A stretch of 64,000 bases of DNA from positions 13,054 to 77,053 of the forward strand of contig CAZNSG010000329.1 in NCBI GenBank assembly GCA_964575715.1, written 5' to 3'. Source of the DNA: an uncultured Hyphomicrobiales bacterium. Its GTDB lineage: Bacteria; Pseudomonadota; Alphaproteobacteria; Rhizobiales; Xanthobacteraceae. How positions within the stretch are numbered: position 1 is the stretch's first letter; every line of letters begins with the position of its first letter. Below, in pieces: positions 1-25,744 of the stretch. The notes beneath the pieces were generated by a model, which was given only the letters and a program-made list of their open reading frames with translations, made no database searches and was not told the origin of the DNA. The position numbers and the translations under genes were made by a program.

Positions 1-222
1 GTTTGCCCCCTTGCTGGACGAGTCCGCTCTCGATCCCCATGCGACCGCATTTGCATGGGCGCCTGATGGGCGCCTGCATGACTTGGGATCGTCATGCCGG
101 CTCAGGCTGCACTCGATCATCGCGACGGTGGCCAGGTCCCGCGGGGGGTAGGCCTGGAACGAATGCATCGGTAGATAATCTGATGGACAGCTAAGGAGGA
201 AATATCAGTTGCACATTGGCGC

Positions 223-239
223 GATAGCCGATCGCTATC
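223..239. promoter_or_regulatory. Dyad GATAGC-N5-GCTATC (ATAG-N7-CTAT, T-N11-A type), copy 1, upstream of the DUF302 gene
   Basis: Read directly: gatagc-cgatc-gctatc. It lies 158 nt upstream of ATG 397. Confidence 0.5.
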
Positions 240-396
240 GCCGCGCTTGGCGTGACGATTTCGTTATTCATTGCCTTCGATACGCGTCAGCTATTGATAT
301 GAAAGTCCGCGTGTGATTTCGAATTCGCCATTCCTGATGCATTCTGAAGTCGAAACTTGCGCAATGACGCGCAAGTCAACGCAGAGGAATGGATTC

Positions 397-879
397 ATGT
401 TCACCAAAGCAAAATTCTTGCGCTTTCCCGCCGCCGCGGTGATTGCGCTCACGCTGGCATTTGCGGGTGACGCAAGCGCTTCGTCCAAGGACGGTATCGT
501 CCGCGTCAAGAGCGCCTACAACTTCACCGATACGGTCGCTCGCCTGAAAGCTGACATCGCCGCAAAGGGCATCATGTTCTTCAGTGAGATTGATCAGTCA
601 AAGTTGGCGGCCGATGCGGGCATCAAGTTGCAGCCATCGACACTGCTGGTGTTTGGCAATCCGCCGCTTGGGACGCAATTCATCACGGCGAATGCAAATT
701 CCGGCTTGGACTGGCCCGTGCGGTTGCTGGTTACCGAGGATGATTCGGGTACGGTGAGAACAATCTATACCGATTTCAATTGGATTGCCGTCCGTCATGG
801 AATCAAGAATCGGAAGGCGCAATTCAAGAAAGCATCCGAGGTCATCGCGTCCATCACGTCGAGCGTGAAGACGAAATGA
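397..879 (+). CDS. Exported DUF302-domain protein
   Basis: ORF 313..879. ATG 397 is preceded by AGAGGA. Signal peptide MFTKAKFLRFPAAAVIALTLAFAGDASA. DUF302-like core (LLVFGNP..G....DWPVRLLV). Confidence 0.75.
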   Translation: MFTKAKFLRFPAAAVIALTLAFAGDASASSKDGIVRVKSAYNFTDTVARLKADIAAKGIMFFSEIDQSKLAADAGIKLQPSTLLVFGNPPLGTQFITANANSGLDWPVRLLVTEDDSGTVRTIYTDFNWIAVRHGIKNRKAQFKKASEVIASITSSVKTK

Positions 880-962
880 GCGGCCGTTCGCGGTGCCGGC
901 TCCGAGCCGATGGGCCATGGTCCCGTCATTTGGAGCCGGCGCCTGCGGACTTCGAACAAGAA

Positions 963-979
963 CATAGCGCAGCGCTATC
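963..979. promoter_or_regulatory. Dyad CATAGC-N5-GCTATC, copy 2, upstream of the cupin gene
   Basis: Read directly: catagc-gcagc-gctatc. It lies 99 nt upstream of ATG 1078. Confidence 0.45.
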
Positions 980-1077
980 GAGTCGAGAGCAACCAGGTAT
1001 TTCCTTCAAAAACACGCGTGGTCCATGATCGCAATTACTGCGGCGGCCAGAAGTGAAGCTGCAGCGAAACAGAGGAG

Positions 1078-1569
1078 ATGAAAATGTTCAATCGCAAGAT
1101 CAACAGTGGCTGGCTTCGTACAATCGCCGCCGTCGCTTTCGTCGCGTCCACCGGATTCGCACTCAACGCTCAGGCCGGTGAATGCCCCGTAGACAAAAGG
1201 AAGGTCGATGCCCGGCAACCCGTGAGCCTGCCTGCCAATGGCGTGACCGATACGACGCTGGGATCAATCGATCTCGGCAAGGAAATGGCAAAGATCACGG
1301 GTCGCGAATTGCGCTTCCGGAAACTGGTCATCAAACCGGGCGGCGTTGTGCCATGGCACAGCCACGACGATCGTCCTGCGCTCATCTTCGTTGCGCGGGG
1401 CACGATCCTGGAATATGCCAGCAATTGCGCGGCGCCGATTGTCCACAAAGCCGGCGAGGTCAGCACAGAGACCCTCGGAACGTCGCACTGGTGGAAGAAC
1501 CTTGGAAACAAGACGGTCGTATTGTACGTCGCCGACGTTCGCCGCGACCCGAATGACAAACATATGTGA
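1078..1569 (+). CDS. Exported cupin-domain protein
   Basis: 163-aa ORF with an N-terminal signal peptide. Cupin motif PWHSHDDRPALIFVARGT...HWWKN. The start could be the second ATG at 1084. Confidence 0.7.
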   Translation: MKMFNRKINSGWLRTIAAVAFVASTGFALNAQAGECPVDKRKVDARQPVSLPANGVTDTTLGSIDLGKEMAKITGRELRFRKLVIKPGGVVPWHSHDDRPALIFVARGTILEYASNCAAPIVHKAGEVSTETLGTSHWWKNLGNKTVVLYVADVRRDPNDKHM

Positions 1570-1768
1570 CGGTTGCTGTCCGCCCCTCCCCCAGCCCGTC
1601 GCATCGTGACGCCCCGTATCCCCCCATACGGGGCGTCCCCCTTTGGCAATGGCCGTTATATTTTTTGCTCCTGCAAAGCCCAGCCTTGCTGCACTCAAAG
1701 GGCTATAATTAATAACATTATCAATGTCTTATTGATCGTCACCGCCGCATTCACTAAAAGTCGCATAT

Positions 1769-1785
1769 CATAGACCATCGCTATC
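1769..1785. promoter_or_regulatory. Degenerate dyad CATAGA-N5-GCTATC, copy 3, upstream of peroxiredoxin-like gene 1
   Basis: Read directly: cataga-ccatc-gctatc. It lies 83 nt upstream of ATG 1868. Confidence 0.35.
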
Positions 1786-1867
1786 ATCCCAGCGCATATA
1801 TTAGAGGCGGTATCGATTTTTCGTTGTGATTCATCATACGGAGTTCCGGAGAAAGGGCCGATCGCAT

Positions 1868-2569
1868 ATGACTTCCCATATTGTGGCTGCCGACATACGT
1901 CAGGCCTTCGAACAGGTCCGCGATATGGATGCATCCATGGGCGAGCGTCTCAAGGCCTTTGCCGATGCTATCCGTAATCTGCATCCGAGCGCGGCGGCGA
2001 TCGCCGATCGCATAGTCAATCGCCTTAAGGAGCACGGTGCCGGCGATGCCGCTCCGAAGGTCGGCGATTTAATGCCACCGTTCATTCTGCCTGATGAATC
2101 AGGTCGATTGGTCAGTCTGCAAGAGATGCTGGCCAATGGACCGGTGATTGCGACGTTTCACCGGGGGCATTGGTGCCCATATTGCCGCATCAGCATCAAT
2201 GCCTTGGCCGAAGCACAGGAGAAAATCAAGAATCTCGGCGCACATATGGTAGCAATTATTCCGGAGCGCGGTCAATTTGCCGCCGAAATGAAACTCGACT
2301 CCAATGTAAGGTTTCCCATCCTGACCGACATGGATAATGGCTATGCGCTCATGCTGAATCTTACTTTTTGGGTCGGTACCGAGGTGCAGCAATTTATGAC
2401 CTCGCTCGGGCGAGATCTGCCTGAATATCAGGGCAATGAAAGCTGGATGCTCCCGATACCGGCAACATTCGTTGTCGGCAAGGACGGGCGCATTAAAGCT
2501 CGTTTTGTCGATCCCGATTATCGCAAGCGTATGGCGATTGAAGAGTTGATCGGCTGTCTGAAACAATAA
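1868..2569 (+). CDS. AhpC/TSA-family (peroxiredoxin-like) thiol oxidoreductase with a WCPYC motif, paralog 1
   Basis: ORF 1826..2569, using internal ATG 1868. Motifs PPFILPDESGRLVSL, FHRGHWCPYC, PATFVVGKDG. No signal peptide. Confidence 0.75.
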   Translation: MTSHIVAADIRQAFEQVRDMDASMGERLKAFADAIRNLHPSAAAIADRIVNRLKEHGAGDAAPKVGDLMPPFILPDESGRLVSLQEMLANGPVIATFHRGHWCPYCRISINALAEAQEKIKNLGAHMVAIIPERGQFAAEMKLDSNVRFPILTDMDNGYALMLNLTFWVGTEVQQFMTSLGRDLPEYQGNESWMLPIPATFVVGKDGRIKARFVDPDYRKRMAIEELIGCLKQ

Positions 2570-2596
2570 GTATTCCGTCGGCGGTCGCATTGACTC

Positions 2597-3484
2597 CTAT
2601 GCGGACTTGCGAGACCAGTTTGCCGCGCGCAGCAGTTTCATTAATGTCGATGCCACGGTCGTCCGCTGCCGGCCGGCGACGCCGTACAGATAGACCGTTC
2701 GATGCAAGTCCGCGCCCTTGACGGGCGCGCGTACTATACTTTGCGGGCAGGTAATGCTCCTTGGAAGGAACCCGATTCCTATATTGGCTTCCAACAGCGC
2801 AATCAAATCCTGGTCCGACGACACTTCATGACTGTGATCTGCGTTAAGACCATTATTACGCAGGATCAGCATGAGCTCAGCGTAATTTTCCCAGTGACTC
2901 CCCATAAGAAATCGCTCGAGCTTGAGATCCTCAAAATGAATGCCCTCTTGGTTGGCTAGCCGATGCACCCGGTTAAATGCCACATCGAAAGAATCGTCGA
3001 AAAGTTTCCAACGATCGAGACGATCCCAGGTATCGCCGATCGAGGCAGCAATAGCGAGTTCAGCATCGCCGGACTTAAGATACTCGACAATTTGCGGTCC
3101 AGTGCCTCGTAGAATTTTCAACTCGATGTCGCTGAGATTTTTCTTGAGTTCGCTCACTTGAGACAAGATCTGGCCAAGCTCAATAGTATTCGATACCGCG
3201 ATTTTGAGCGCACCAACTTCGCCCTTATTGACCAATGTCGCAAGCGATCGCGCACTCACGGCACTCTCGTAACATTGCTTCAGATGTGGAAAAATTTGTT
3301 CTCCGAGCGGAGTCAGCATGGCGCGCGGCCGCTCACGGCGAAACAAATCGCCACCGAGTTCGCCCTCAAGCAGCTTGATGGCGCGCGTCAGCGATGGCTG
3401 TGCGACATTGCATTCCTCGGCAGCCCGGGTGAAATTCAACGTCTGGGCGACGGCCAAGAAATATCGGACTTGATGCATTTCCAT
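2597..3484 (-). CDS. LysR-family transcriptional regulator
   Basis: 295 aa. N-terminal HTH MEMHQVRYFLAVAQTLNFTRAAEECNVAQPSLTRAIKLLE, followed by a LysR substrate-binding region. Confidence 0.9.
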   Translation of the reverse strand: MEMHQVRYFLAVAQTLNFTRAAEECNVAQPSLTRAIKLLEGELGGDLFRRERPRAMLTPLGEQIFPHLKQCYESAVSARSLATLVNKGEVGALKIAVSNTIELGQILSQVSELKKNLSDIELKILRGTGPQIVEYLKSGDAELAIAASIGDTWDRLDRWKLFDDSFDVAFNRVHRLANQEGIHFEDLKLERFLMGSHWENYAELMLILRNNGLNADHSHEVSSDQDLIALLEANIGIGFLPRSITCPQSIVRAPVKGADLHRTVYLYGVAGRQRTTVASTLMKLLRAANWSRKSA

Positions 3485-3510
3485 TCGCCGGCCCCCGCCC
3501 CCAGTGAGCC

Positions 3511-4833
3511 TTAACTCGCCCTTGAACGCAACTCTGGCTTCTCATGCATACGCATACTGTCCAGATGCGGCGTAGACAATCCCGTGATGAGCCGGCTGCC
3601 GCGTTGAAACGTAACATAACTCCAGACCCAGTTCAGGGCGACAACAAATCGATTCCTAAAACCGATCAGGAAGTAGATATGGGCCAAGCTCCAGAGCAAC
3701 CAGGCCGAAAATCCCGAAAGGCGGAGCCGGCCAAACTGAGCAATGGCGCGTTTGCGCCCAATCGTGGCCAAAGTACCAAAATCGCGATAGCGAAATGCAT
3801 GGATGGGCAGGCCACGAGTGCGCGCAATCAGCAGACGGGCAACATAATTCCCTTGCTGTTTAGCGACGGGAGCAACGCCCGGCAACGTGGCTCCGTCGCC
3901 GGTCGAAACGGAAGCCGTATCGCCGATCACAAACACATGGGGGTGGCGGGGTACCGACAAATCAGGATTGACCTTGACCCGGCCGGCGCGGTCGGTTTCC
4001 GCGCCAAGCCAGCGCCCCGCCGGCGAGGCCATCACGCCCGCGGCCCAGATGATCGTCCGGCTCGGAATGAACTCGCCGGCAACGCGGACACCTTCGCAGC
4101 TGCATTCACTGACGGCGGTGCCAAGCCGAACTTCGACACCGAGCATCTCAAGCGAGCGCCGTGCTGACTCTGACAATGATGGATCAAACGGTGTCAAAAC
4201 TCGCGGCGCGGCTTCGACCAAAATAATCTTGGCACAGCGTGGATCGATGGAGCGAAAATCGGAAGCAAGCGCGCGACTGGCCAATTCCGCGATTGCGCCA
4301 GCCATTTCAACTCCAGTCGGACCGCCGCCGACGATGACAAAGGTCAACAACCGGCGCCGCTCAACTGCATCATCCTCGGTCTCGGCTTTTTCAAAGGCGA
4401 GCAGGATTCGGCGACGCAAGTAGGTGGCGTCGTCAAGCGTCTTCAAGCCGGGCGCATAGGTCGCCCAATCGTCGCGACCAAAATAGGCATGCCGGACTCC
4501 GGTCGCGATGATCAGGTAATCGTACGAAATCCGTCGTTCATCCGCGAGCACTTGTCTTCGCTTTAAATCGACTCCGGTCACATCGGCGAGAATAACCTTG
4601 ACGTTCTCCTGGCCACGCAAGATGGCTCGGATTGGCGAAGCAATATCGGCCGGCGATAGGCCTGCGGTTGCCACTTGATAAAGCAGCGGCTGGAACAGGT
4701 GATGATTGTTGCGGTCGATCAGCGTGATTTCGAATGGCTGCCCGGCTAGCCGCTTAGCCGCCGATAGACCGCCAAATCCTCCTCCAACGATCACTACATG
4801 AGGTTTGGAATGAGATTGCTGTGCGCTGTTCAT
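3511..4833 (-). CDS. ndh: Type II NADH dehydrogenase (NDH-2), FAD-dependent
   Basis: 440 aa. VVIVGGGFGGLSAA dinucleotide fold, LFQPLLYQVATAGL, a second GGGPTGVE fold, and a C-terminal membrane-anchor-like segment. The start overlaps the upstream stop as ATGA at 4830-4833. Confidence 0.85.
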   Translation of the reverse strand: MNSAQQSHSKPHVVIVGGGFGGLSAAKRLAGQPFEITLIDRNNHHLFQPLLYQVATAGLSPADIASPIRAILRGQENVKVILADVTGVDLKRRQVLADERRISYDYLIIATGVRHAYFGRDDWATYAPGLKTLDDATYLRRRILLAFEKAETEDDAVERRRLLTFVIVGGGPTGVEMAGAIAELASRALASDFRSIDPRCAKIILVEAAPRVLTPFDPSLSESARRSLEMLGVEVRLGTAVSECSCEGVRVAGEFIPSRTIIWAAGVMASPAGRWLGAETDRAGRVKVNPDLSVPRHPHVFVIGDTASVSTGDGATLPGVAPVAKQQGNYVARLLIARTRGLPIHAFRYRDFGTLATIGRKRAIAQFGRLRLSGFSAWLLWSLAHIYFLIGFRNRFVVALNWVWSYVTFQRGSRLITGLSTPHLDSMRMHEKPELRSRAS

Positions 4834-5651
4834 GGTTTTGAACCGGTTTGTGCGGCGACCGCAGGCCTATTGGACCAGCCGAAACCAATGACAATTTCAG
4901 ATGAGATGAGCGTCGTAAGACTGGCTGCAAGGTCGAAGTTAGCCGCTGTTGCCACGGCGCATTCGATGGCAGATGCGACCGTCCTGCCCTGGGAAAGCGC
5001 GTTCAGGAACTCATAATCTCCATCGGACAGCCGCCAGACCACAACTTGCAGATAGGGTCGCGCGATAAGGGCCGACTCCGGTGCCCATTTTTGAATGTCG
5101 TTGGTGTCCCCGTAGTAGTTGGATTCCCAGATGCTAACGAAGGGGAAGCGTGAATTGAGCAACACCACAGATGGATGAAGATTTATCGTCAGCTCCGCGA
5201 GTTGATCTGGGGACAGTGAAGCGAACGCGCTCTTGCCGATCGGCTTTGCATCGGCGGCGTGATAGGCGCGCACGCGGGCTGCCTCCAACTCCGCGATCGT
5301 GGCGAGATATTCCGCCGCAGCGCCGTGCCCGACACTGCGAATGAATTGCGGGAAACTTTTGCCATACTCAAGCAGGATCGGCGATTTCGGGGGCTCTGCC
5401 GTTACATAGAGGCGCACAACCCCGTGAAACGAGTCATCGCCCAGGAGTTTGCGCACAACGGGATATTTTGCCGTGACGGCATTCATCAGCCCCCCGATGA
5501 CGTTATTCCGATAGACGCCGAAGCGGCTTGCGGTTGTCGAGAGCGAGCGGGATTTGAGAAATGCAGAAATTGGCGAGACATCGGAAAAAATCGCGTGCGA
5601 AAACAATCGCTGAATGTCTGCAAGACCAAGCGTGTCCTGAAAGGCATTCAT
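4830..5651 (-). CDS. DUF2063-family protein (BufC-like partner of an MNIO enzyme)
   Basis: ORF 4830..5852. ATG 5651 lies 5 nt after the DUF692 stop. Its position directly downstream of a DUF692 gene is the canonical pairing. Confidence 0.7.
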   Translation of the reverse strand: MNAFQDTLGLADIQRLFSHAIFSDVSPISAFLKSRSLSTTASRFGVYRNNVIGGLMNAVTAKYPVVRKLLGDDSFHGVVRLYVTAEPPKSPILLEYGKSFPQFIRSVGHGAAAEYLATIAELEAARVRAYHAADAKPIGKSAFASLSPDQLAELTINLHPSVVLLNSRFPFVSIWESNYYGDTNDIQKWAPESALIARPYLQVVVWRLSDGDYEFLNALSQGRTVASAIECAVATAANFDLAASLTTLISSEIVIGFGWSNRPAVAAQTGSKP

Positions 5652-5655
5652 GACG

Positions 5656-6567
5656 TTACGCCGCAGCCATTTCTTCGCCGCTTTCGGCATTCGCCAAAAG
5701 AAGCGAGCGAGCGCGTGCCGCCTCGGACGCCAGCACTGCAAATGGCGGGACGTTATTGTCCCACTCGACGAGCGTTGGCGCGAGGTATTGATACGCCAAT
5801 ACCCGACGGTAGAGATCCCAGACTGAACCGCTGATTGGCTTTCCGTGATCATCGATCAGCAGGCGCGCCCCGGAACTGTCGCGGTCCTCGGCAAAGCCAG
5901 CAAGATGAAATTCACCGACAAATTCGATGGGAAAGGCATCGATGTAAGCGGCGGCATCGAAGCCATGATTGACAGCGGAAATAAAAACATTGTTGACGTC
6001 GAGCAGCAATCCGCAGCCGGTCCTGCGCGCAACCGCGCGCAGAAATTCGGTTTCATCCATCGTGTTTGCTTTGAATGTTGTGTAGGTCGATGGATTCTCG
6101 AGCAGCATGCGCATTCCGATGGAGTTCTGCACTTCATCGACATGAGCGCAGATATGCGCCAAGGTTATTTCGTTGTAGGGCAAGGGCAAAAGATCGTTGA
6201 GAAAGGTGCCCTCATGCGTTGACCATGCCAGATGTTCCGAAAACAGTGCTGGCCGATATACGTCGATAAGTCCCTTCAACCGACGTAGATGATCGCGATC
6301 AAGCGGCGCGATGCCGCCAATTGACAAGCCGACGCCGTGAATTGAAATCGGATAATCGGCCCTGATACGGCGGAGCAGATGATGTGGGGGGCCGCCGGCG
6401 CCCATGTAATTCTCCGCATGAATCTCAAAGAAATCGACGCGCGAATGAGCACTAAATATCTCTTCGGCATGCTCGTGTTTGAGCCCGGTTCCGACCGACA
6501 TTGCGCCAAGTCTTGGTGCGTCCCGTCCTGGCGCTCCGGCTTTTGTCGATTTTGATTGCGCTCGCAT
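5656..6567 (-). CDS. DUF692 / multinuclear non-heme iron oxidative enzyme (MNIO; MbnB/BufB-like)
   Basis: 303 aa. TIM-barrel UPF0276-like motifs: GLKHEH, VDFFEIHAENYMG, ISIHGVGLSIG, FSEHLAW, LLLDVNNVF, EFHLAG. Confidence 0.8.
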   Translation of the reverse strand: MRAQSKSTKAGAPGRDAPRLGAMSVGTGLKHEHAEEIFSAHSRVDFFEIHAENYMGAGGPPHHLLRRIRADYPISIHGVGLSIGGIAPLDRDHLRRLKGLIDVYRPALFSEHLAWSTHEGTFLNDLLPLPYNEITLAHICAHVDEVQNSIGMRMLLENPSTYTTFKANTMDETEFLRAVARRTGCGLLLDVNNVFISAVNHGFDAAAYIDAFPIEFVGEFHLAGFAEDRDSSGARLLIDDHGKPISGSVWDLYRRVLAYQYLAPTLVEWDNNVPPFAVLASEAARARSLLLANAESGEEMAAA

Positions 6568-6663
6568 AACTCACCAGCGGTCGATATTGCGGTGCGGGCA
6601 GGGGGAGAAACTGGCGCACATTTTGCGCCGGCTCTCATCGGGATCTATGGACCTTCCGCGCGA

Positions 6664-6954
6664 TCAGGGACGTGCGATCTCCTTGAGGGAGCCGACGCCG
6701 AAGGGAGTCTGCGTGGTCATGCAAGTTCCCTTGTTGACGAGCTTCCAGGCGTTGCCCTGGTAGTCCACTGTCGCGGTCGCGGCACAGGTCGTACCTGCGC
6801 CGGCGGCGCAATCATTTTCACCCTTCAGAGAGATGCCGTAGCATTTCTCCTTGGACGCTGCTTCTGCCGTCGACAATGTGCCGGCCGCTGCAAGCGCCGA
6901 ACCCAGGGCTGCCGCGATCGCCAACGATAATGCAGGATTGAGTCTGTTCGACAT
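6664..6954 (-). CDS. DUF2282-type secreted precursor peptide (bufferin BufA1-like), 4 Cys
   Basis: 96 aa. AAGGAG lies 7 nt upstream of the ATG. Sec signal peptide ends ...STAEA. Core [43 protein letters not shown] matches the DUF2282 Cys pattern. Confidence 0.75.
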
Positions 6955-7051
6955 TTGACTTCTCCTTAATACCCTAGATCGCTTCCCATGAGCGTCGCCG
7001 TATTGTGACGCGCTTCGCTACGATTATGAAATATCATCCGGCAATTGATGC

Positions 7052-7068
7052 GATAGCGTTTAGCTATC
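7052..7068. promoter_or_regulatory. Dyad GATAGC-N5-GCTATC, copy 4, upstream of the precursor gene
   Basis: Read directly: gatagc-gttta-gctatc. It lies 98 nt upstream of ATG 6954 on the minus strand. Confidence 0.5.
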
Positions 7069-7071
7069 CAT

Positions 7072-7281
7072 TTACCGAAGAACCGATTGCCCGTTGATGG
7101 CATGTGCCGATTGCCGCGATGCCTTGATGACGGACTGATCGGCGGTCAGCTTGCTGCCATTACGAAGAGAATCGATCCGTGCGTTGATGCCCGCGATCAT
7201 GACGACGATCCCGGCAATCAAAGAAACTGCTACAATTCGGATATGCGTGTAGCGATCTGCGCCTCGCATTGAATGGTTCAT
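7072..7281 (-). CDS. Small single-pass membrane protein, hypothetical
   Basis: Internal ATG of ORF 7072..7518 with an AAGAGGA RBS. One hydrophobic helix IRIVAVSLIAGIVVMIAGI. I recognise no family. Confidence 0.4.
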   Translation of the reverse strand: MNHSMRGADRYTHIRIVAVSLIAGIVVMIAGINARIDSLRNGSKLTADQSVIKASRQSAHAINGQSVLR

Positions 7282-7514
7282 GGCAACTATCCTCTTAAAG
7301 TCGGAGCAGGCCGAGGTTCGTGGCAAAAATTTAAAATCATCAGGCTCAATTGTATAATGCCGTCTGGCTATTGAACCGATAGAGCGCGGAAATGGTCTGG
7401 TTCGGTGGTCACAGAAAGCCCGTATCGCATTCATGATTTGCCAATGCCGGAGGTATTTTAGACCTTCTCGCACCACGACAATTTGGCACCAAAGAGGGCT
7501 GGATTCGAAAACTT

Positions 7515-8234
7515 TCAACGGCGTTTTTGCAGCTTTTTGAGCCCCGCGATGATTGCCTCGGGCTCCATGCGCTCGCGAAACTCGACGTTGAGCTGCCGCG
7601 CTTTCACCATTCCATCCTGGTCGACAATGAACTTTGCGGCAATTGGAAGAAAATAACTTTGATTGCCGTGGTAGTGCTCCAATTCAATCCCAACATCATC
7701 GTAAAGTCGCTTGATTTCAGCGCCAACCCAATGGACCAATCCAAGCGAAAGCGAATAACCCAGATCGATGTCGCTCAGGATCGGGAATGGAAGATCGTTA
7801 AGTTCAACGGAACTTTTGGTGAATTGCGCATTGTCCGGCATGATAGAGACAATCTGCGCGCCCAGCTTCTCGATTTGTGGATGTATCGCGGCGAGCGAGC
7901 GAAGTTCCAATTTGCAGTACGGGCACCAGTGCCCGCGATTGAAGCTGACGACGACCGGTCCGGATTTCAGCAGTGAATTTAACGATACCAGGCTGCTTTT
8001 CTCATCGGGCAAAAGAAATGGCGGCAATTGCTCGCCGATTTTCGGTCCGATTTCGCCGCGATCAAGCACGCCGAGACGGGTTATCAGCTGTTCGTAAGGC
8101 TTGACGAATTGGGGTCGCAGCCGACTGCTCTGCTCGCGATAGGCTGACAATCGGAGATTGAGCGAATCAAATTGGTTTCCGTTTCGCGTAAATACGTCGG
8201 CCGATGTTTCCGAAGGGGTATCAGGTTTGCTCAT
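7515..8234 (-). CDS. AhpC/TSA-family (peroxiredoxin-like) thiol oxidoreductase with a WCPYC motif, paralog 2
   Basis: ORF 7515..8285, using ATG 8234. PPFLLPDEKSSLVSL, FNRGHWCPYC, AAKFIVDQDG. Collinear with the 1868..2569 protein. Confidence 0.75.
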   Translation of the reverse strand: MSKPDTPSETSADVFTRNGNQFDSLNLRLSAYREQSSRLRPQFVKPYEQLITRLGVLDRGEIGPKIGEQLPPFLLPDEKSSLVSLNSLLKSGPVVVSFNRGHWCPYCKLELRSLAAIHPQIEKLGAQIVSIMPDNAQFTKSSVELNDLPFPILSDIDLGYSLSLGLVHWVGAEIKRLYDDVGIELEHYHGNQSYFLPIAAKFIVDQDGMVKARQLNVEFRERMEPEAIIAGLKKLQKRR

Positions 8235-8299
8235 GTACGCCTCGTGCGTGCGACCAGCAGATAGCGTTGCTGCGAAAAACAGCAAGTATCACGACGGCG

Positions 8300-8316
8300 G
8301 ATAGCAAGGGGCTATC
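8300..8316. promoter_or_regulatory. Dyad GATAGC-N5-GCTATC, copy 5, in the divergent spacer between peroxiredoxin-like gene 2 and the 663-aa membrane protein gene
   Basis: Read directly: gatagc-aaggg-gctatc. It lies 66 nt upstream of ATG 8234 (minus strand) and 211 nt upstream of ATG 8527 (plus strand). Confidence 0.5.
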
Positions 8317-8526: not shown

Positions 8527-10518
8527 ATGGCATCGGCTGCTAATGCTGCTTTATGCGCGATAGTGGCGACAGCGTTTTGGACGTTGTTGGGCTATGCCAT
8601 CGGCCGCCATATTTTCCCGCGTATTCTTGCAATCGGCACGGCAGCCATCATTGGCTGGGCGGTCTACAACTCAGTCACACTGCCGATCTTTGGTCTATTC
8701 GGCTTCTCTCCGGTCACAGTAGCGAGCGCTATCGCGCTCTGCGTGATCGGAAGTTGCACTTCGATATTTGCGCTATCGGGGAAAAGCGATACCGAACCCG
8801 CGCCGGCCATAGCCATGTGGGTTTATCTTGCTGCCGCTGTTCTTGCGCTGGTGCCAGCCGCGGCCATCTTGCCGAAGATCGCCGCGGACTCGGTGCAGCT
8901 TGCAAGTCCGATATTCGATCATTCCAAGGTGGCGATGATCGATGCCATGGCGCGGCTTGGCTTACCTCCAGTAAATCCCTTCTTTGGCGAAGACGGCACG
9001 CCGGGCCGCCTCGCCTATTACTATCTCTGGTATTTCAGCGCCGCTCAGCTTTCGCTCGTGCTCGGCGTGAGTGGATGGGAAGCTGATATCGGACTGACAT
9101 GGTTCTCCGCCTACGCGTCATTGACATTGATGATGGGCCTTGCGGTATGGCTTAGCAAACGCTCCGCCGCCGCGATCTGGGTGGTGCTTCTCGCCGGTGC
9201 GACGTCGCTTCGCGCGACGCTCATAACCATTTTTGGCACCAACAATCTCGAGCCGTTTCTTTTGTCTTCGACAGGCTTTGCTGGCTGGATGTTTCAAGCG
9301 ACGTGGGTGCCCCAGCATCTCACATCGGCATCGTGTGTCGTGGTTGCGATGCTCCTGCTGAGCCAATACGCGGTTCAGCAGAACATCGTGCTGCTCGCGG
9401 TACTGATCCTGGTGGTTGCCGCCGGATTTGAAAGTTCGACCTATGTCGGCGGCATCACTTTTTCCGTCGCCGCACTGATCGCCGTGCCAATTCTGCTTTT
9501 CAGCATTGACAAAGTCTTCCGGCTCCGTTTTGCGATTGGATTGTTGACCGCAGCCGTGCTCGCGGCGGGTCTTGCTGCTCCATTTTTGTTCGATCAGATC
9601 GCAACTGTCGGCGCACGCGGCGCAGGCGCGCCGATCGTGATTGATCATTTTGCCGTCCTTGGAGAAATGTTTACGCCGTTTCTTCGCCGTCTCCTGGATC
9701 TGCTCGCCTATTGGCTCATTCTAATGCCAATCGAGTTTCCGGCCACCTATTGCGCCGGCGCTCTTGCGCTAGTGGTCATGTTACGAGCTTTTGCGGCATT
9801 GCCGGAAAAATTCGCAACAGCTGCGTTCGCGTCACTTACGGTGGCGGGATTGGCCGTTTCATGGCTGCTTGTCAGCACACTCGGTGGAAACAACGATCTC
9901 GCCCTGCGCGCCGTCATAGCGCCTGCCATGATTCTGATCGCGAGCGCGGCGGCGGGGATGGTGCTCCGACCCCGACGTGCTGTGATAATCGCGGCCGCGC
10001 TTGGCGGTCTGCTCCTGAGCCTGCCGGATGCCGTGCGCATGATTCATTACAACTTCGCCGGCGATGCGACCCCGGCCGGCCAAGCGTTTGCACAATCGCC
10101 GCAGATGTGGGCTGCCGTGCGCCAGCATGCAACACCAAACGCCCGGGTCGGCAACAACCCGCTATTCTTGCAGGACATGACGCCTTGGCCGGTCAATATT
10201 TCCTGGGCTTTGCTGGCCAATCGCAGCTCGTGCTTTGCCGGCCTTGAGCTGACTCTCGCCTACGCGCCGCTTACCCGCGAACGCCGCGAGACGATCAACG
10301 CGCAGTTTATTCGCGTGTTCGAAGGCCAAAGCACAGCAGAAGATATTTCGGATTTGGCGAGCAAATACGGCTGTGAAGTTGTTGCCCTCACAGTGCATGA
10401 CAAGGCTTGGGATGCAGACCCGTTTGCTTCAAGCGCAAACTATCGCCTGGCCGAGGCCAAGGAAGGCCAGTGGAGGATCTATACACAAGTGCCCGCGACC
10501 GCTCCGGCAGTTCGGTAA
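8527..10518 (+). CDS. Large polytopic membrane protein with a C-terminal soluble domain (GT-C-like architecture, family unrecognised)
   Basis: 663-aa ORF. More than 12 hydrophobic segments are followed by about 140 hydrophilic residues. Confidence 0.65.
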   Translation: MASAANAALCAIVATAFWTLLGYAIGRHIFPRILAIGTAAIIGWAVYNSVTLPIFGLFGFSPVTVASAIALCVIGSCTSIFALSGKSDTEPAPAIAMWVYLAAAVLALVPAAAILPKIAADSVQLASPIFDHSKVAMIDAMARLGLPPVNPFFGEDGTPGRLAYYYLWYFSAAQLSLVLGVSGWEADIGLTWFSAYASLTLMMGLAVWLSKRSAAAIWVVLLAGATSLRATLITIFGTNNLEPFLLSSTGFAGWMFQATWVPQHLTSASCVVVAMLLLSQYAVQQNIVLLAVLILVVAAGFESSTYVGGITFSVAALIAVPILLFSIDKVFRLRFAIGLLTAAVLAAGLAAPFLFDQIATVGARGAGAPIVIDHFAVLGEMFTPFLRRLLDLLAYWLILMPIEFPATYCAGALALVVMLRAFAALPEKFATAAFASLTVAGLAVSWLLVSTLGGNNDLALRAVIAPAMILIASAAAGMVLRPRRAVIIAAALGGLLLSLPDAVRMIHYNFAGDATPAGQAFAQSPQMWAAVRQHATPNARVGNNPLFLQDMTPWPVNISWALLANRSSCFAGLELTLAYAPLTRERRETINAQFIRVFEGQSTAEDISDLASKYGCEVVALTVHDKAWDADPFASSANYRLAEAKEGQWRIYTQVPATAPAVR

Positions 10519-10543: not shown

Positions 10544-11335
10544 TCAAATCCCAGCGAACCAGTTGAAACCCTGCTTGTGCCAAAACGTGTCAGGAAAGCT
10601 GTTCGTCACTTCGATCGCGGTGATCCATTTCGCATTTTTGAATCCGAGTTTCGTTGATGTGCGCAGGCGCAGCGGATACCCGAACGGATCGGCAATAATT
10701 TCCTTGGCATACTTGGTCGCCAATATCGTCTGCGGATGGAGCGCGGTCGCCATGTCGATGCTTTCGGTATAGTCGTCCGCGCATATGAACGCGATATATT
10801 TGGCGGTCAAATCAGCGCCAATGCGCTCCAGAAAGCTCCGCAGATTCGGTCCCGACCACTGCCCGATGTAATCCCATCCTTCCACGCAAATGTGGCGGAT
10901 GATCAGCTCTTGCTCGGGAAGCTCGTAAATCTGCCGTGCGGTCCAGGGCCGCTTGTCCGCGATGCGGCCGGACAATTCCAATTTCCAGCTCGCGCCGTCC
11001 ACCGGCTTTACATCCTCGATATCGTAGTAGGCATTGAAACGCGGTGGCTTGACGACCTGGGTTTCCGAATATGTCTGCGCGAGATGATTGGGCCTGAATA
11101 TGGCGGCCTGCACGCCGTCGTTCCACGCCGAAACGGCGCGCAGCACGGCCTGCACGGCATTTGAGTCCGAGACGTCGCAGCCCGTGAGCATCGTGAGACC
11201 ACCGAGACTCAGCGCGCCACGCAGTAGATTGCGGCGATCAATTTTCTCGATTAGCGCGCGGTTTTCCCGGAGCACGCTTTGATCGATTGGCTTTGCAGGT
11301 CGAAAGATCGATGGCGAGGGGGTTTTGATTGGCAT
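10544..11335 (-). CDS. Molybdopterin-dependent oxidoreductase (sulfite oxidase / MsrP-like fold) with a Tat signal
   Basis: 263 aa. Twin-arginine DRRNLLRGALSLGGLTMLTGC. Motifs HICVEGW and RLRTSTKLGFKNAKWI. Confidence 0.8.
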   Translation of the reverse strand: MPIKTPSPSIFRPAKPIDQSVLRENRALIEKIDRRNLLRGALSLGGLTMLTGCDVSDSNAVQAVLRAVSAWNDGVQAAIFRPNHLAQTYSETQVVKPPRFNAYYDIEDVKPVDGASWKLELSGRIADKRPWTARQIYELPEQELIIRHICVEGWDYIGQWSGPNLRSFLERIGADLTAKYIAFICADDYTESIDMATALHPQTILATKYAKEIIADPFGYPLRLRTSTKLGFKNAKWITAIEVTNSFPDTFWHKQGFNWFAGI

Positions 11336-11347
11336 CGTCGATACCGT

Positions 11348-12028
11348 CTAGTTGGTTAGTTTGGCTTCGATTGACGCTTTGTCGGCAGACGTCGACTGAT
11401 TGTCTGTTTTAGGTCCGCCAGTCAGCATGGCGAGCAGCGATTGCGGCACCAGCAACGCCAACGCCACGTGCACGGCCAGAAACAGCACAATGGCCGCCAT
11501 GCACAGAAAATGCACCAGTCGTGCGGTCTGGAAGTCGTAGAACAAAGTCGCCAACTCAGAGAACTGGACCGGCTTCCAGAGTACCAGGCCGGACATTACT
11601 GTTAGGATCCCCACCAGCATGATGCCGAGATAGAGAATCTTTTGAACGGCGTTGTAACGCGACAGATCGTCATGCTTGAGGCGAAATCGTAGGGCGTCGC
11701 CGACGGTTGCGAGCAACTCGCGCATTGTGACCGGGAAGAGCTTTTGCCGGAAGCGACCGGATACAATTCCGTAGATCAAATAGAACAATCCATTGAACGT
11801 GAAAATCCACATTCCAAGGAAATGCCACTGCAGTCCGTGCTGGGCCCACTTTCCGAGGGTGAGGAATTCGGGAAAATGCAGCCAGCCGAAGATCACTTCG
11901 TCATTGTAGATCTTCCACCCGCTTGTGATCATAATCAGCACCGCAAGTGTATTGATCCAATGCATGATGCGCACTGGCAGCGGGTGAAGGCGTTCGCGAG
12001 CATCCGATTTGACTTCAACATCCGCCAT
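11348..12028 (-). CDS. Cytochrome b (b561 / Ni-Fe hydrogenase b-type family) membrane subunit
   Basis: 226 aa. RIMHWINTLAVLIMITSGW followed by further TM helices with His residues. Sits 12 nt upstream of the Mo-oxidoreductase gene. Confidence 0.75.
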   Translation of the reverse strand: MADVEVKSDARERLHPLPVRIMHWINTLAVLIMITSGWKIYNDEVIFGWLHFPEFLTLGKWAQHGLQWHFLGMWIFTFNGLFYLIYGIVSGRFRQKLFPVTMRELLATVGDALRFRLKHDDLSRYNAVQKILYLGIMLVGILTVMSGLVLWKPVQFSELATLFYDFQTARLVHFLCMAAIVLFLAVHVALALLVPQSLLAMLTGGPKTDNQSTSADKASIEAKLTN

Positions 12029-12664: not shown

Positions 12665-12820
12665 TTCCGAGTTGCAGCGGTCACAAGTAATTGAAGAGGT
12701 AACTTTATTGTGTCGGCGAGCGAATTTGGGGGTCAGGAACGGTTCATGTGAGTTTGTGTACGGTCGCTCAAGCTGCACTTTTGACTGCATCATATATGAT
12801 TGTACCATTCGGAGTACAGC

Positions 12821-13660
12821 ATGCGTGGACCCAACGGATTAACAGTTAAACGTAAGTCTGTCAGTGCTTGGGCAGGGCAGAATTATTTTTCTTTATCGGA
12901 GACTCAACGCTGTGGCATTGCGATCATGGCGAAGGCTTCAACGCCAGGGCGCACCAAGACGCGGTTGGCGCCGCCACTGAATTTTGAAGAAGCCGCAGAA
13001 TTCAATACTGCATTTCTGCAAGACATCACGGAGAACGTGCTGCTTGCCGGGCATCAGGTTAGCCTCGCCGGCTATGTGGCATTCGGTCCGCCAGGGTCCG
13101 AGGAGTTTTTTCGCCGCACGCTGCCGGCCGCGATCGGACTCATCGACGCGTCGTTTCCGTATTTCGGTGACTGTCTGATCTTCACGATCGATGAAATTCT
13201 TCGGCGCGGTCATGACTCGGCCGTTGTGCTCAACTCCGACAGCCCTACGTTGCCAACGTCGCTCCTTGTCGAAACTGCGGAGATACTCGCGCGGCCCGGC
13301 GATCGCGCGGTGCTCGGTCCCTGCAGCGACGGCGGATATTATTTGTTGGGCTTAAAGCGAACTCACCATCGCCTGTTCGAAGATATCGCCTGGAGCACAG
13401 AAAAAGTCGCGAAACAGACCTTGGCACGTGCCCGGGAAATCAATCTTGATGTTCACGTGCTGCCGGTTTGGTACGATGTCGATGACTTCGAGGGTCTGAG
13501 AACACTCCACGGCGAACTTCCCAGGATAAATTCTTCCAAGGTTCGGCTCGTCCCTTATCATGCCGCCAAGACGGCCGCACTGATGGAGCGGCTTTGGCGG
13601 GATGCCGATTTCGTGCGCCGTGTCGGCCGGCTCCTGCAACTTGAAAAACTCGGTGCTTGA
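12821..13660 (+). CDS. DUF2064 / TIGR04282-like nucleotidyl- or glycosyl-transferase-fold protein
   Basis: ORF 12800..13660 (TTG at 12800, ATG at 12821). Signatures IAIMAKASTPGRTKTRL, VLNSDSPTLP, GPCSDGGYYLLGLK. Confidence 0.7.
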   Translation: MRGPNGLTVKRKSVSAWAGQNYFSLSETQRCGIAIMAKASTPGRTKTRLAPPLNFEEAAEFNTAFLQDITENVLLAGHQVSLAGYVAFGPPGSEEFFRRTLPAAIGLIDASFPYFGDCLIFTIDEILRRGHDSAVVLNSDSPTLPTSLLVETAEILARPGDRAVLGPCSDGGYYLLGLKRTHHRLFEDIAWSTEKVAKQTLARAREINLDVHVLPVWYDVDDFEGLRTLHGELPRINSSKVRLVPYHAAKTAALMERLWRDADFVRRVGRLLQLEKLGA

Positions 13661-13704
13661 TACTGCTGTATTTTCCATGCGATCAGTACAACGGATGAAA
13701 TGCC

Positions 13705-14769
13705 ATGGATGGAACTGCCTCTGACCGCATGATCGATCCTCAGCGCTACTTCGAAAGTGTGCAGACGCGCGGTGAGGTTCCGGCGCAGGAACCCGTCTGC
13801 CTTTATCTGGAGACGACCAATCGCTGCAATCTGTTGTGCACGACCTGCCCGCGAACCTATGAGGAGCTGGAGCCCCCGGCGGATATGAGCTGGGAGCTGT
13901 TCACATCGATCGTCGATCAGATTCCGAAACTCCAGCGGGCGGTGCTGCACGGCGTCGGTGAACCGATGCTGGTGAAGAATCTGCCGCGCATGGTGCGATA
14001 TCTCAAGGATCGCGGCACTTACGTCCTGTTCAACACCAACGGCACGGTTCTTAACGAGCGTAACGGCCGTGCCTTGATCCAAGCCGGATTGGACGAGCTG
14101 CGCGTTTCGTTCGACGCCTCGAATCCCAAATCCTATCTCGCAGTTCGCGGCAAGAATTATTTCAACCGAATCCTGAAGAATGTCCGCGCCTTCCGCGCGC
14201 TGCAGGAACGCGAAGGCCATGCCAAGCCGCGCGTGTCGGCCTGGCTGACGGGCTTGCGCGAAACCATCGAAGAACTGCCGGACTTTGTGCGCGTGGCCGC
14301 CGAGATCGGGGTGAAGGAGGTTTACCTGCAACGGCTGGTATTTTTCAATGATCATGCGATCGGAAAGGCGCGACCGGATCAAGCGTTATATGAGCAGCTA
14401 TCGCGCGACGAGGCGATTTATATCGACCGGGCCACCGCGCTCGCCAAGTCCCTGGGCATTAAGTTCAGCGCATCGGGCGGCGCCTCCGAACCCGGCATGA
14501 GTCTCAAACGCAGCGATAATGGATCGCCCTGGTCGCTATGCCGCCGGCCCTGGACGGTCATGTATTTTACCGCCAATGGGCGCGCGCTTCCCTGTTGTAT
14601 CGCGCCATTCTCACAACGGGGCTATGAAAATTACACACTGGGCGATGCGACCCAACAAACGTTGCGCGAGATCTGGATCGGTCCGGCTTACGGCGATTTT
14701 CGCAAAGCATTATTGTCGAACAAACCACAGGCGGCCTGTGCAAGCTGCGGTCTGCGGTGGAGCCTATGA
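13705..14769 (+). CDS. Radical SAM enzyme with a C-terminal SPASM/twitch Cys cluster
   Basis: 354 aa. CNLLCTTCPR (CxxxCxxC), GEPML. C-terminus C..PW......NG...PCCIAP ... ACASCG. Confidence 0.85.
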   Translation: MDGTASDRMIDPQRYFESVQTRGEVPAQEPVCLYLETTNRCNLLCTTCPRTYEELEPPADMSWELFTSIVDQIPKLQRAVLHGVGEPMLVKNLPRMVRYLKDRGTYVLFNTNGTVLNERNGRALIQAGLDELRVSFDASNPKSYLAVRGKNYFNRILKNVRAFRALQEREGHAKPRVSAWLTGLRETIEELPDFVRVAAEIGVKEVYLQRLVFFNDHAIGKARPDQALYEQLSRDEAIYIDRATALAKSLGIKFSASGGASEPGMSLKRSDNGSPWSLCRRPWTVMYFTANGRALPCCIAPFSQRGYENYTLGDATQQTLREIWIGPAYGDFRKALLSNKPQAACASCGLRWSL

Positions 14770-24667: not shown

Positions 24668-25744
24668 TCAACCGCCCAGCAGCTTGCCGACCACCTTGGC
24701 GGTGTAATCGACCATCGGAATAACACGGGCATAGTTGAGACGGGTCGGTCCGATCACCCCGATGACGCCGACGATGCGGCCGGCGCGGTCATGATAGGGC
24801 GCGATGATGGTGGAGGAGCCGGAGAGCGAAAACAGCTTGTTCTCCGAGCCGATGAAGATGCGCACGCCCTCGGCACTTTCCGCCCGGCCGAGCAGATCGA
24901 CCACCTCGCGCCGGGTTTCGAGATCGTCGAACAGGAGCCGCACGCGTTCAAGGTCTTCGAGCGCATGGAGATCGTCGAGCAGATGGGCCTGGCCGCGCAC
25001 AATCAGCCGGCGCTCATCGCTCGCGCCGCCCGACCAGCTCGCAAGCCCGGCCTCGACGATTTTTTGCGTGAGCACATCGAGCTCGGCGCGGCCAGCGTCC
25101 AAGGCGCGTTCAATCTCGACCTTGGCCTCGAAGAGAGTCCTGCCGCGGATGCGCGCGTTGAGGAAATTCGTCGCCTCGGTGAGCGCCGAGGTCGGTAGCC
25201 CGATCGGCAACTGAACGACGCGGTTTTCGACCTGGCCATCCTCGGCAACGAGCACGACCAGCGCGCGTTCCGGCTCCAGGCGAACGAATTCGATATGCTT
25301 GAGCCGCACGTTGGTCTTGTCGGTCAGCACGACACCGGCGGCGCGCGTAAGGCCGGAAAGCAGTCCAGACGCTTCGGCCAGCACGCTGTCGACGGACTTG
25401 CCGGCGCCGGCGACCTGCGCCTCGATCTGCTTGCGATCGTTCTCGTTCAGATCGCCGATCTGCATGAGTGCATCGACGAAGAAACGCAGGCCCAGTTCCG
25501 TCGGCAACCGGCCGGCAGACGTGTGGGGGGCGTAGATCAAACCAAGCTGTTCGAGGTCCGCCATTACGTTGCGCACGGAGGCGGGCGAGAGCGGGGTCGT
25601 GATCAGGCGCGAGAGATTGCGCGAGCCGACCGGCTCGCCGGTCGCAAGATAGCTCTCGACGATCTGCCGGAAGATCTCGCGCGAGCGCTCGTTGAGCTGC
25701 GCGAGGCTTACCTGGTTTGCACCGATCGGGACATCTTGCGACAC
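24668..25744 (-). CDS. hrcA: Heat-inducible transcription repressor HrcA
   Basis: 358 aa. Winged-helix N-terminus ([21 protein letters not shown]) and an HrcA C-terminal domain. Confidence 0.93.

Follow-up and report, generated by a model that had tools for sequence, protein, structure and literature searches.

The published OxyR consensus is ATAG-N7-CTAT with a 22-bp spacing, and at oxyS the binding positions of the protein are -66 and -44 (PMC5002191). Bufferins are periplasmic copper-chelating ribosomally synthesized and post-translationally modified peptides (PMC11626156), and the described control of their buf operons involves SigF/NrsF, BvgAS or metal induction (PMC11626156, PMC12452194); LysR is mentioned in neither of these two papers. 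The present analysis concerns a 64,000-nt stretch of DNA (the window) from an uncultured Hyphomicrobiales bacterium (contig CAZNSG010000329.1, positions 13,054–77,053), in which five copies of the dyad ATAG-N7-CTAT are found close to a bufferin operon and to the gene of a LysR-type transcriptional regulator (LTTR; positions 2597–3484). These dyads are probably the high-affinity recognition sites of this regulator, a member of an OxyR-related subfamily. The initial annotation had proposed that the dyads mark a local regulon in the first 8.5 kb; they do mark one, but it extends past 8.5 kb and past the window itself.

A pattern scan revealed five matches to ATAG-N7-CTAT in the window (at 224, 964, 1770, 7053 and 8301), each within a 17-mer present exactly where it had been reported. 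The expected number of matches is 0.12 and none of 100 dinucleotide-preserving shuffles contained five or more, which bears out the earlier view that the copies did not arise by chance. All five dyads (sites 1–5) are intergenic, both in the open reading frame (ORF) calls and in the independent gene calls available for contig L081, which is 100% identical to the window and reaches 2.9 kb further left; their distances from the start codons (158, 105, 83, 98 and 66 nt, respectively) agree with those given previously. The pattern contains the T-N11-A motif of LTTR operator dyads and equals one half of an OxyR tetrad, as had been noted. The scan found no other strict copy in the remaining 55 kb of the window, while a sixth one (ATAGCCGGCGCCTAT; L081:11849) is located on the same contig, 1.7 kb outside the left window end. 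When up to two mismatches to the full 17-mer were allowed, just two matches were added (at 25648 and 33448); these were discarded, since they retain a single arm, have no box (the downstream motif described below) and a low position weight matrix (PWM) score, and look like chance occurrences. The set of five is nevertheless incomplete, as a degenerate composite site (7357–7393) and a one-mismatch dyad (280–294) are also present.

With the regulator as query and one genome per species, 80 related loci (53–74% identity; 1.376 Mb in total) were collected from Pseudolabrys, Rhodoplanes, Methyloceanibacter, Bradyrhizobium, Afipia and other Alphaproteobacteria. They contain 192 strict dyads, compared with approximately 2.6 expected, and the co-occurrence of the dyad with orthologous blocks, which the initial annotation had put up for checking, is strongly supported. 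If the five dyads of the window are included, 188 of 197 lie within 450 nt upstream of orthologs of the peroxiredoxin-like (Prx), cupin, DUF302, DUF2282, NDH-2 or LysR genes, so that in this 1.4-Mb sample the dyad is not common at non-promoter positions. The association holds despite differences in gene order and orientation between lineages. The nine unassigned dyads either represent a chance-like number (approximately 2.6) or precede other genes, such as that of DoxX. In addition, the loci of Pseudolabrys (L001–L005) contain an extra dyad roughly 70 nt ahead of the NDH-2 gene and still inside the 3′ end of bufC. This hints at an internal promoter that serves NDH-2 and the regulator; the window, with its overlap of bufC and the NDH-2 gene, lacks this dyad.

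The dyad is part of a larger conserved element. A box, GGCATTTC (with up to two mismatches), is present downstream of 168 of 195 sites (86%, against a background of 9%), and in 162 of 184 box placements it is located exactly 17 nt past CTAT. Read as a 15-mer, a second, degenerate dyad (AnAGC-N5-GGCAT) is placed 7 nt downstream of the first, and the whole element can be written as ATAG-N7-CTAT-N7-AnAG-N7-GCAT, followed by TTCC, with the dyad centers 22 bp apart. It thus consists of four ATAG-type elements at 10–11 bp intervals, as in an OxyR operator. Two PWMs, a full one of 48 nt (dyad, second dyad and box) and a dyad-only one of 21 nt, were trained on other genomes only, with the window left out. 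The full PWM, for which the null maximum was 0.7, gave scores of 47.4, 36.2 and 31.0 for the sites facing the cupin gene, bufA and egtD, respectively.

The manner in which the dyads vary bears on whether they act through their sequence or as hairpins. A 6-bp stem is possible at each copy and a simple scan flagged two of them as terminator-like, which would fit hairpins (terminators, REP-like elements or attenuators). However, deviations of the dyad arms from the consensus were uncompensated in 206 cases and compensated in only 2, so that the sequence of the arms, and not their pairing, is conserved; this pattern indicates selection on sequence, and hence protein contact, and the terminator reading of the two flagged copies was rejected on these counts. 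Moreover, the spacer of 5 nt is free to vary, genes are preceded and not followed by the sites, and the sites are conserved across genera despite different flanks. Taken together with the expectation of 0.12 given above, the view that the dyads are hairpins, chance occurrences or local duplicates is hardly tenable.

The operator features identified in the window are as follows:
Positions 223–239, no strand assigned: site 1, strict dyad GATAGCCGATCGCTATC (sequence and PWM).
Positions 199–216, minus strand: second (activation-type) half of the site-1 tetrad, ATGTGCAACTGATAT followed by TTC, with the box 17 nt past CTAT.
Positions 199–206, minus strand: site-1 box GATATTTC, exactly 17 nt after CTAT on this strand.
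Positions 280–294, plus strand: degenerate dyad ATACGCGTCAGCTAT with one mismatch, a weak candidate for the DUF302 operator.
Positions 963–1003, plus strand: site 2, full composite operator (PWM 47.4).
Positions 1769–1785, no strand assigned: site 3, dyad CATAGACCATCGCTATC without a second dyad (sequence and PWM).
Positions 7028–7068, minus strand: site 4, composite operator (PWM 36.2).
Positions 7357–7393, minus strand: degenerate tetrad before the gene of a 69-aa protein (PWM 18.9, null maximum 0.7).
Positions 8300–8316, no strand assigned: site 5, strict dyad GATAGCAAGGGGCTATC with a second dyad on neither side (sequence and PWM).

At sites 1, 2 and 4 the second dyad, 7 nt from the first, completes an OxyR-like tetrad. 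Site 2 (cupin) has the highest PWM score of the window, within the range of the training sites; its dyad (964–978) is followed by a 7-nt spacer, the second dyad AGAGCAACCAGGTAT (986–1000), the box GGTATTTC (996–1003) and the -10-like hexamer CATGAT (1024–1029). Site 4 has the same arrangement on the minus strand (dyad 7067–7053, second dyad ATTGCCGGATGATAT at 7045–7031, box GATATTTC at 7035–7028 and -10-like CACAAT at 7007–7002), and its layout is repeated before the DUF2282 gene in L001–L005, L017, L028 and L052. In the degenerate tetrad at 7357–7393 the inner pair (CTAT-N7-ATAG) is perfect and the outer pair is degenerate; the same inner-pair design occurs on L081 at the promoter of a short-chain dehydrogenase/reductase (SDR) gene, while the sixth strict dyad of that contig faces a DoxX gene.

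Site 1 had been assigned to the DUF302 gene. Its asymmetry (PWM 31.0 leftward and -6.9 rightward, i.e. on the DUF302 side) points left, to egtD, but DUF302 may share the site. DUF302 orthologs are preceded by a dyad in 27 instances in the related loci, and in the window the degenerate dyad at 280–294 is accompanied by a box-like sequence, GTGATTTC (313–320), with its center 110 nt from the DUF302 ATG (family median, 116 nt). This dyad scores 13.3 with the 21-nt PWM and 1.4 with the 48-nt PWM. The operator of DUF302 is therefore probably either this weaker dyad or a shared site 1.

In 70% of 265 non-redundant composite sites, a -10-like sequence nATnnT begins exactly 60 nt from the dyad start. 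From this fixed distance, the start of transcription is predicted at about 72 nt from the dyad start, which would place the dyad centers at approximately -65 and -43. A consensus scan found no canonical sigma-70 promoter at the sites, and promoter-like matches were fewer than in shuffled sequences. Within the first 8.6 kb, the closest approach to a sigma-70 promoter (TTTAAA-17-TATAAT, 10/12; positions 7330–7358, plus strand) overlaps the operator at 7357–7393 by 2 nt and is antisense to the second redoxin gene.

A different design is seen at the two redoxin genes. At site 3, the -10-like hexamer TATATT (1797–1802) is located 12 nt past the dyad, which would then overlap the -35 region; this layout is common to the orthologous Prx1 promoters of loci L002–L008. 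At site 5, GATACT is found on the minus strand 10 nt beyond the dyad. Sites 3 and 5 and their Pseudolabrys orthologs thus share a -10-like hexamer 10–12 nt past the dyad, and this single-dyad design is possibly a different, repressive one. In Bradyrhizobium, by comparison, the operator of the Prx gene is a full composite one and stands back-to-back with the operator of DUF302 or the cupin.

The only LTTR gene in the whole 64 kb is that at 2597–3484, in agreement with the earlier claim that it is the only regulator of the block. In 47 of the 80 related loci an SDR gene is divergent from the regulator gene at a distance of less than 800 nt, and where a dyad is present in their common spacer (at least 34 loci) the box faces the SDR gene. 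A dyad within 450 nt upstream of the LTTR start, as expected for autoregulation, was found in 39 loci, and in three loci a dyad overlaps the start codon of the regulator. Some metagenome contigs with the same operator encode distant LTTRs with only 29–37% overall identity to the window protein; their first 60 residues (the DNA-binding domain) are 73–77% identical to it and the rest 24–26%, whereas for E. coli OxyR the identity in this domain is 37%. Among the computational arguments, this joint conservation of DNA-binding domain and operator gives the proposed assignment of the regulator its best support.

By its sequence relationships the regulator falls into an as yet unnamed subfamily of LTTRs that is related to OxyR. 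The solved structures closest to it are those of OxyRs (E = 1e-15 to 1e-25), while all NCBIfam equivalogs, including OxyR, remain far below threshold (NF008361, with a cut-off of 329: window protein, 77.8; P0059, 90.2; a distant member, 114.9). In a MAFFT alignment, a Cys occupies the column of E. coli C199 in 80 of 81 family members, the exception being the copy of the window, and Cys25 and Cys71 are invariant. The column of the resolving Cys (C208) contains S, L, M or I, and some members have a CxxC (HCENC). HMMER aligns the family HC with the GHC of C. glutamicum OxyR, and distant members retain the motif as RINCE.

The window protein reads FLMGSHWENY where its closest relatives (79–81% identity) read FLLRSHCENC. 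W198 and Y201 replace the two Cys residues through single-nucleotide changes (TGG and TAC; window 2882–2893), and the neighboring LR is changed to MG. Cys198 is present in all 80 genome orthologs and in all 16 close homologs examined. Sequencing error is unlikely, as the same protein was assembled from two Sequence Read Archive runs. The earlier remark that the OxyR redox Cys is missing is therefore correct for the window protein, which has neither cysteine, but not for its family, which has the C199 equivalent. The allele may be a natural sensor-dead or locked form. An AlphaFold2 model of the close homolog P0002 (11 sequences of approximately 80% identity) had a mean predicted local distance difference test score of 36 and was unusable.

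The composite operator was also used for an exact-match scan of metagenome contigs in which no protein query was involved. This analysis yielded 81 sites, 58 of which could be assigned to the same gene families as above: cupin (43), DUF302 (8), DoxX (2), DUF2282 (2), Prx (2, one overlapping the predicted start) and LysR family (1). The operators are located 49–114 nt before the cupin, DUF302, DoxX or DUF2282 genes; 11 of the 81 sites lie at contig edges and a few others precede genes for small periplasmic proteins. One such protein (approximately 88 aa, with conserved Cys residues: KEDCD...SCKAGD) is encoded after a perfect composite operator in two loci (L087:6700–6872 and L116:5750–5924), and may likewise belong to the regulon, although the window does not encode it. 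The cupin is the commonest target, both here and in the genomes (about 60 loci).

Several observations weigh against the assignment of the dyads to the local regulator and against its proposed mode of action. The promoter positions at -65 and -43 are all deduced from sequence. The regulator gene of the window closes the operon behind site 4 and is not divergent from a target. Sites 3 and 5 have no second dyad and their mode of action is ambiguous. The window copy has lost the conserved Cys of the family, and the redox-sensing model of the family may not transfer to it. Finally, a regulator with at least 45% identity was found in only 26 of 80 metagenome loci and in 9 of the 20 loci of at least 7 kb, counts that cover the fetched DNA, most contigs being short.

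The last point could indicate that a factor other than an LTTR, encoded outside the window, binds the dyads, and that the LysR gene co-occurs with them only as part of a shared island; a close LTTR homolog is indeed absent from the fetched stretch in 11 of the 20 longer loci, and binding by LysR is predicted from sequence. This explanation is very unlikely, however: more distant LTTRs that share the DNA-binding domain of the regulator are encoded in several of the loci counted as negative, the loci have no other conserved regulator gene in common, and the pair of T-N11-A dyads, resembling a recognition binding site (RBS) and an activation binding site (ABS), with its 22-bp spacing and predicted placement at -65 and -43, is a hallmark of LTTRs.

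The identity of the dyad with the canonical OxyR half-site likewise counts against an exclusive role of the local regulator, since cross-recognition by a true OxyR is possible. A canonical OxyR encoded elsewhere could bind the dyads, the island being part of an ordinary peroxide regulon, and the 22-bp spacing of the published consensus (PMC5002191), the OxyR structures found as closest solved relatives of the regulator family and the presence of peroxiredoxin-like proteins among the targets would all be in line with this. Yet katG or ahpC followed none of the 81 metagenome composite operators and no site in the 80 genome loci. Canonical oxyR adjoins katG in rhizobia, which is a different context (PMC8226930). 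The operator travels with the local LTTR family, whose distant members share the DNA-binding domain to an extent that E. coli OxyR does not, many sites lie in the upstream region of the local regulator gene itself, and the OxyR consensus lacks the conserved extension GGCATTTCC. Control by canonical OxyR is thus considered unlikely, and binding by the local LTTR remains the favored interpretation.

The genes of the island in which the operators reside, and their flanks, are as follows:
Positions 1–168, minus strand: 5′ end of egtD (L-histidine N-alpha-methyltransferase; NCBIfam EgtD), running off the left edge.
Positions 397–879, plus strand: DUF302 protein with a signal peptide (Pfam PF03625).
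Positions 1084–1569, plus strand: cupin with a signal peptide (Pfam Cupin_2).
Positions 1868–2569, plus strand: redoxin or peroxiredoxin-like protein 1, with an HWCPYC motif (Pfam Redoxin, AhpC-TSA).
Positions 2597–3484, minus strand: LysR-type regulator (Pfam HTH_1, LysR_substrate).
Positions 3511–4833, minus strand: NDH-2-type pyridine nucleotide-disulfide oxidoreductase (Pfam Pyr_redox_2, NDH2_C).
Positions 4830–5651, minus strand: BufC-like DUF2063 partner protein (Pfam PF09836, 76.5 bits).
Positions 5656–6567, minus strand: BufB, bufferin maturase of the MNIO family (NCBIfam MNIO_BufB, 376.8; cut-off 310).
Positions 6664–6954, minus strand: BufA1-type (DUF2282) bufferin precursor with a signal peptide and four Cys in the core (PF10048, 80.4 bits).
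Positions 7072–7281, minus strand: predicted 69-aa membrane protein with a good Shine-Dalgarno sequence (called gene on L081).
Positions 7515–8234, minus strand: redoxin or peroxiredoxin-like protein 2 (Pfam AhpC-TSA, Redoxin).
Positions 8527–10518, plus strand: 663-aa membrane protein without a Pfam or NCBIfam family.

The buf, NDH-2 and regulator genes are separated by gaps of 97, 4 and 27 nt, with a 4-nt overlap (ATGA) of the bufC stop and the NDH-2 start, and are close enough to form one operon. As the regulator gene is the last one of this bufA-bufB-bufC-NDH2 operon, it would be autoregulated through site 4. Of the 80 related loci, 77 have a Prx gene, which in most of the loci displayed directly follows the regulator gene, tail-to-tail with it; in the window the gene for redoxin 1 is likewise convergent with the LysR gene. 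A protein similar to the 69-aa one (85 aa) is encoded after a composite operator in L059. The 663-aa membrane protein, which had been named as a divergent target of site 5, was rejected as an unsupported one: it has no homolog in the 80 loci and belongs to no family, and no second dyad faces it.

On contig L081, egtD (L081:10003–11139) is a 378-aa gene call starting at window position 168, and its product passes the NCBIfam EgtD equivalog model (394; cut-off 290.9), with the EgtD domain beginning at residue 75. The called protein has a 75-residue N-terminal extension and the predicted -10 element is located approximately 6 nt before the called ATG; the start codon is probably miscalled, the true one being further downstream. 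No egtB adjoins egtD on L081. A tblastn search of the related loci with the partial leftward ORF (window 1–168) returned nothing, and egtD was identified through L081. To the left of egtD on this contig are the genes for DoxX and then SDR, the latter passing the 3-hydroxybutyrate dehydrogenase model (389; cut-off 307).

In the proposed mechanism, a tetramer of the regulator would bind ATAGC-N5-GCTAT and, 7 nt downstream, the weaker AnAGC-N5-GGCAT (followed by TTCC). The composite promoters, with dyads near -65 and -43, would be those of the cupin gene, the bufA operon, egtD, DoxX, SDR and the gene of the 69-aa protein, and they would be activated in the classical LTTR/OxyR way. At the two Prx-like genes of this genome, the single dyad, about 10–12 nt before the -10-like hexamer and over the -35 region, may mediate repression or another action. 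In the family, Cys198 would probably sense an oxidant or a thiol-reactive stress as the signal; in the Cys-less copy of this genome the response may be altered or constitutive.

The predicted regulon comprises at least 9–10 promoters over approximately 13 kb and includes genes for bufferin, the periplasmic cupin and DUF302 proteins, DoxX, two CxxC redoxins, NDH-2, EgtD and an SDR of the 3-hydroxybutyrate dehydrogenase type; in other genomes it also contains a disulfide reductase and pirin. It reads as a redox, thiol and copper stress defense module, and this content, combined with the OxyR-like Cys of the family, suggests a response to oxidant, thiol-reactive or copper stress. A published study linked subfamilies of cupin, SDR and LysR statistically to chlorite dismutase (PMC9751292); the link to reactive chlorine is treated as a lead only.

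Control of the buf operon appears to differ between lineages. In Bradyrhizobium the buf operons, located 4–6 kb from the gene of the same LTTR, have a TGTAAC-N16-CGAA promoter of the SigF or extracytoplasmic function (ECF) type and no dyad (L045:3930–3990 and L048:5050–5110), whereas that of the window has the LTTR operator. Upstream of bufA in the window, neither a sigma factor or NrsF gene nor a GTAAC-N16-CGAA promoter was found. A more far-reaching proposal would be that the family, OxyR-like and widespread in soil Alphaproteobacteria, with a conserved DNA-binding domain, an [H/N]-C-E sensor motif and no resolving Cys, is a thiol-based sensor of oxidants, reactive chlorine or copper; that it controls a defense regulon devoted to the envelope and the cytoplasm (cupin, DUF302, DoxX, CxxC redoxins, SDR and EgtD); that it took the bufferin operon over from SigF/NrsF in some lineages; and that the C198W, C201Y allele of the window is signal-blind or constitutive; this combination is possible but rather doubtful.

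Analysis of the base composition showed that the first ~14 kb, which contain the regulon island, have a G+C content of 53–57%, and most of the remaining window (14000–64000) one of 60–66%, suggesting that the island has a different history from the rest. Its gene order is syntenic with that of the Pseudolabrys loci L002, L003 and L005. Adjoining the island (10544–12028, minus strand) are genes with Oxidored_molyb and cytochrome b561 domains, an MsrP/MsrQ-like pair without a dyad; such a pair also occurs in metagenome locus L122, near a cupin operator. Further on (12800–14769, plus strand), a DUF2064 gene is followed by that of a radical SAM/SPASM enzyme, which could be a further peptide- or cofactor-maturation pair and appears unrelated to the dyads.

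The regulon offers an operator, a promoter geometry, a regulator and about ten promoters for the study of the cupin, DUF302, DoxX and Prx-like CxxC redoxin families. The functions of these proteins (in the case of the cupin, a periplasmic one) are mostly unknown, and the regulon links them to bufferin, a peptide of recent discovery. As the module is found again across soil Alphaproteobacteria (Bradyrhizobium, Methyloceanibacter and Pseudolabrys among them) and in numerous soil metagenomes, it is of relevance to hundreds of genomes. That orthologous buf operons have an LTTR operator in some genomes and an ECF promoter in others clearly illustrates regulatory rewiring, and the double Cys loss provides a natural mutant for questions of sensor mechanism. 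The literature searched describes neither a regulator with this regulon nor a member of the family (an apparent mention of DUF302 in a paper on E. coli LTTRs proved to be DUF3029).

Compared with known systems, the locus resembles OxyR in its half-site, the 22-bp spacing of the dyad centers, the predicted -65/-43 placement (as at oxyS), the LTTR fold and domains, the family His-Cys that aligns with the peroxidatic Cys (E. coli C199, C. glutamicum C206) and the peroxiredoxin-type targets. It differs in that the regulator is not an OxyR ortholog (NCBIfam scores of 77.8–115 against 329) and has no resolving Cys at the C208 position, the window copy having Trp and Tyr in place of cysteines; the operator has the additional conserved GGCATTTCC; and the regulon contains, instead of catalase or ahpCF, the cupin, DUF302, DoxX, SDR, bufferin operon, EgtD and NDH-2.

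Cys-dependent LTTRs over thiol and antioxidant genes, including one-Cys or variant OxyR-like ones, are also known in Alphaproteobacteria (LsrB and OxyR paralogs), and the present family would be similar in this respect; no evidence was found for its orthology to either. LsrB has other cysteines and another genomic context.

With LTTRs in general (CbnR, BenM, IlvY, CynR) the system shares the T-N11-A dyad, with a putative strong RBS and a weaker ABS that would lie beside the -35 region; in most related genomes it also has a regulator divergent from its target (SDR). Unlike them, one regulator would serve at least nine clustered promoters in approximately 13 kb, two promoter designs occur side by side (one with a composite operator, the other with a single dyad that would cover the -35 region), and the regulator gene of the window ends a target operon. 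The buf genes resemble other bufferin (buf1/GIG/DUF2282-MNIO-DUF2063) operons in encoding BufA1, BufB and BufC in a stress-defense context with DoxX nearby, but, unlike those with SigF-NrsF, the buf operon of the window and of Pseudolabrys-like genomes carries an LTTR operator. The system is thus of a known kind, with no new mechanism, and represents an uncharacterized regulon that is larger than was apparent in the initial annotation.

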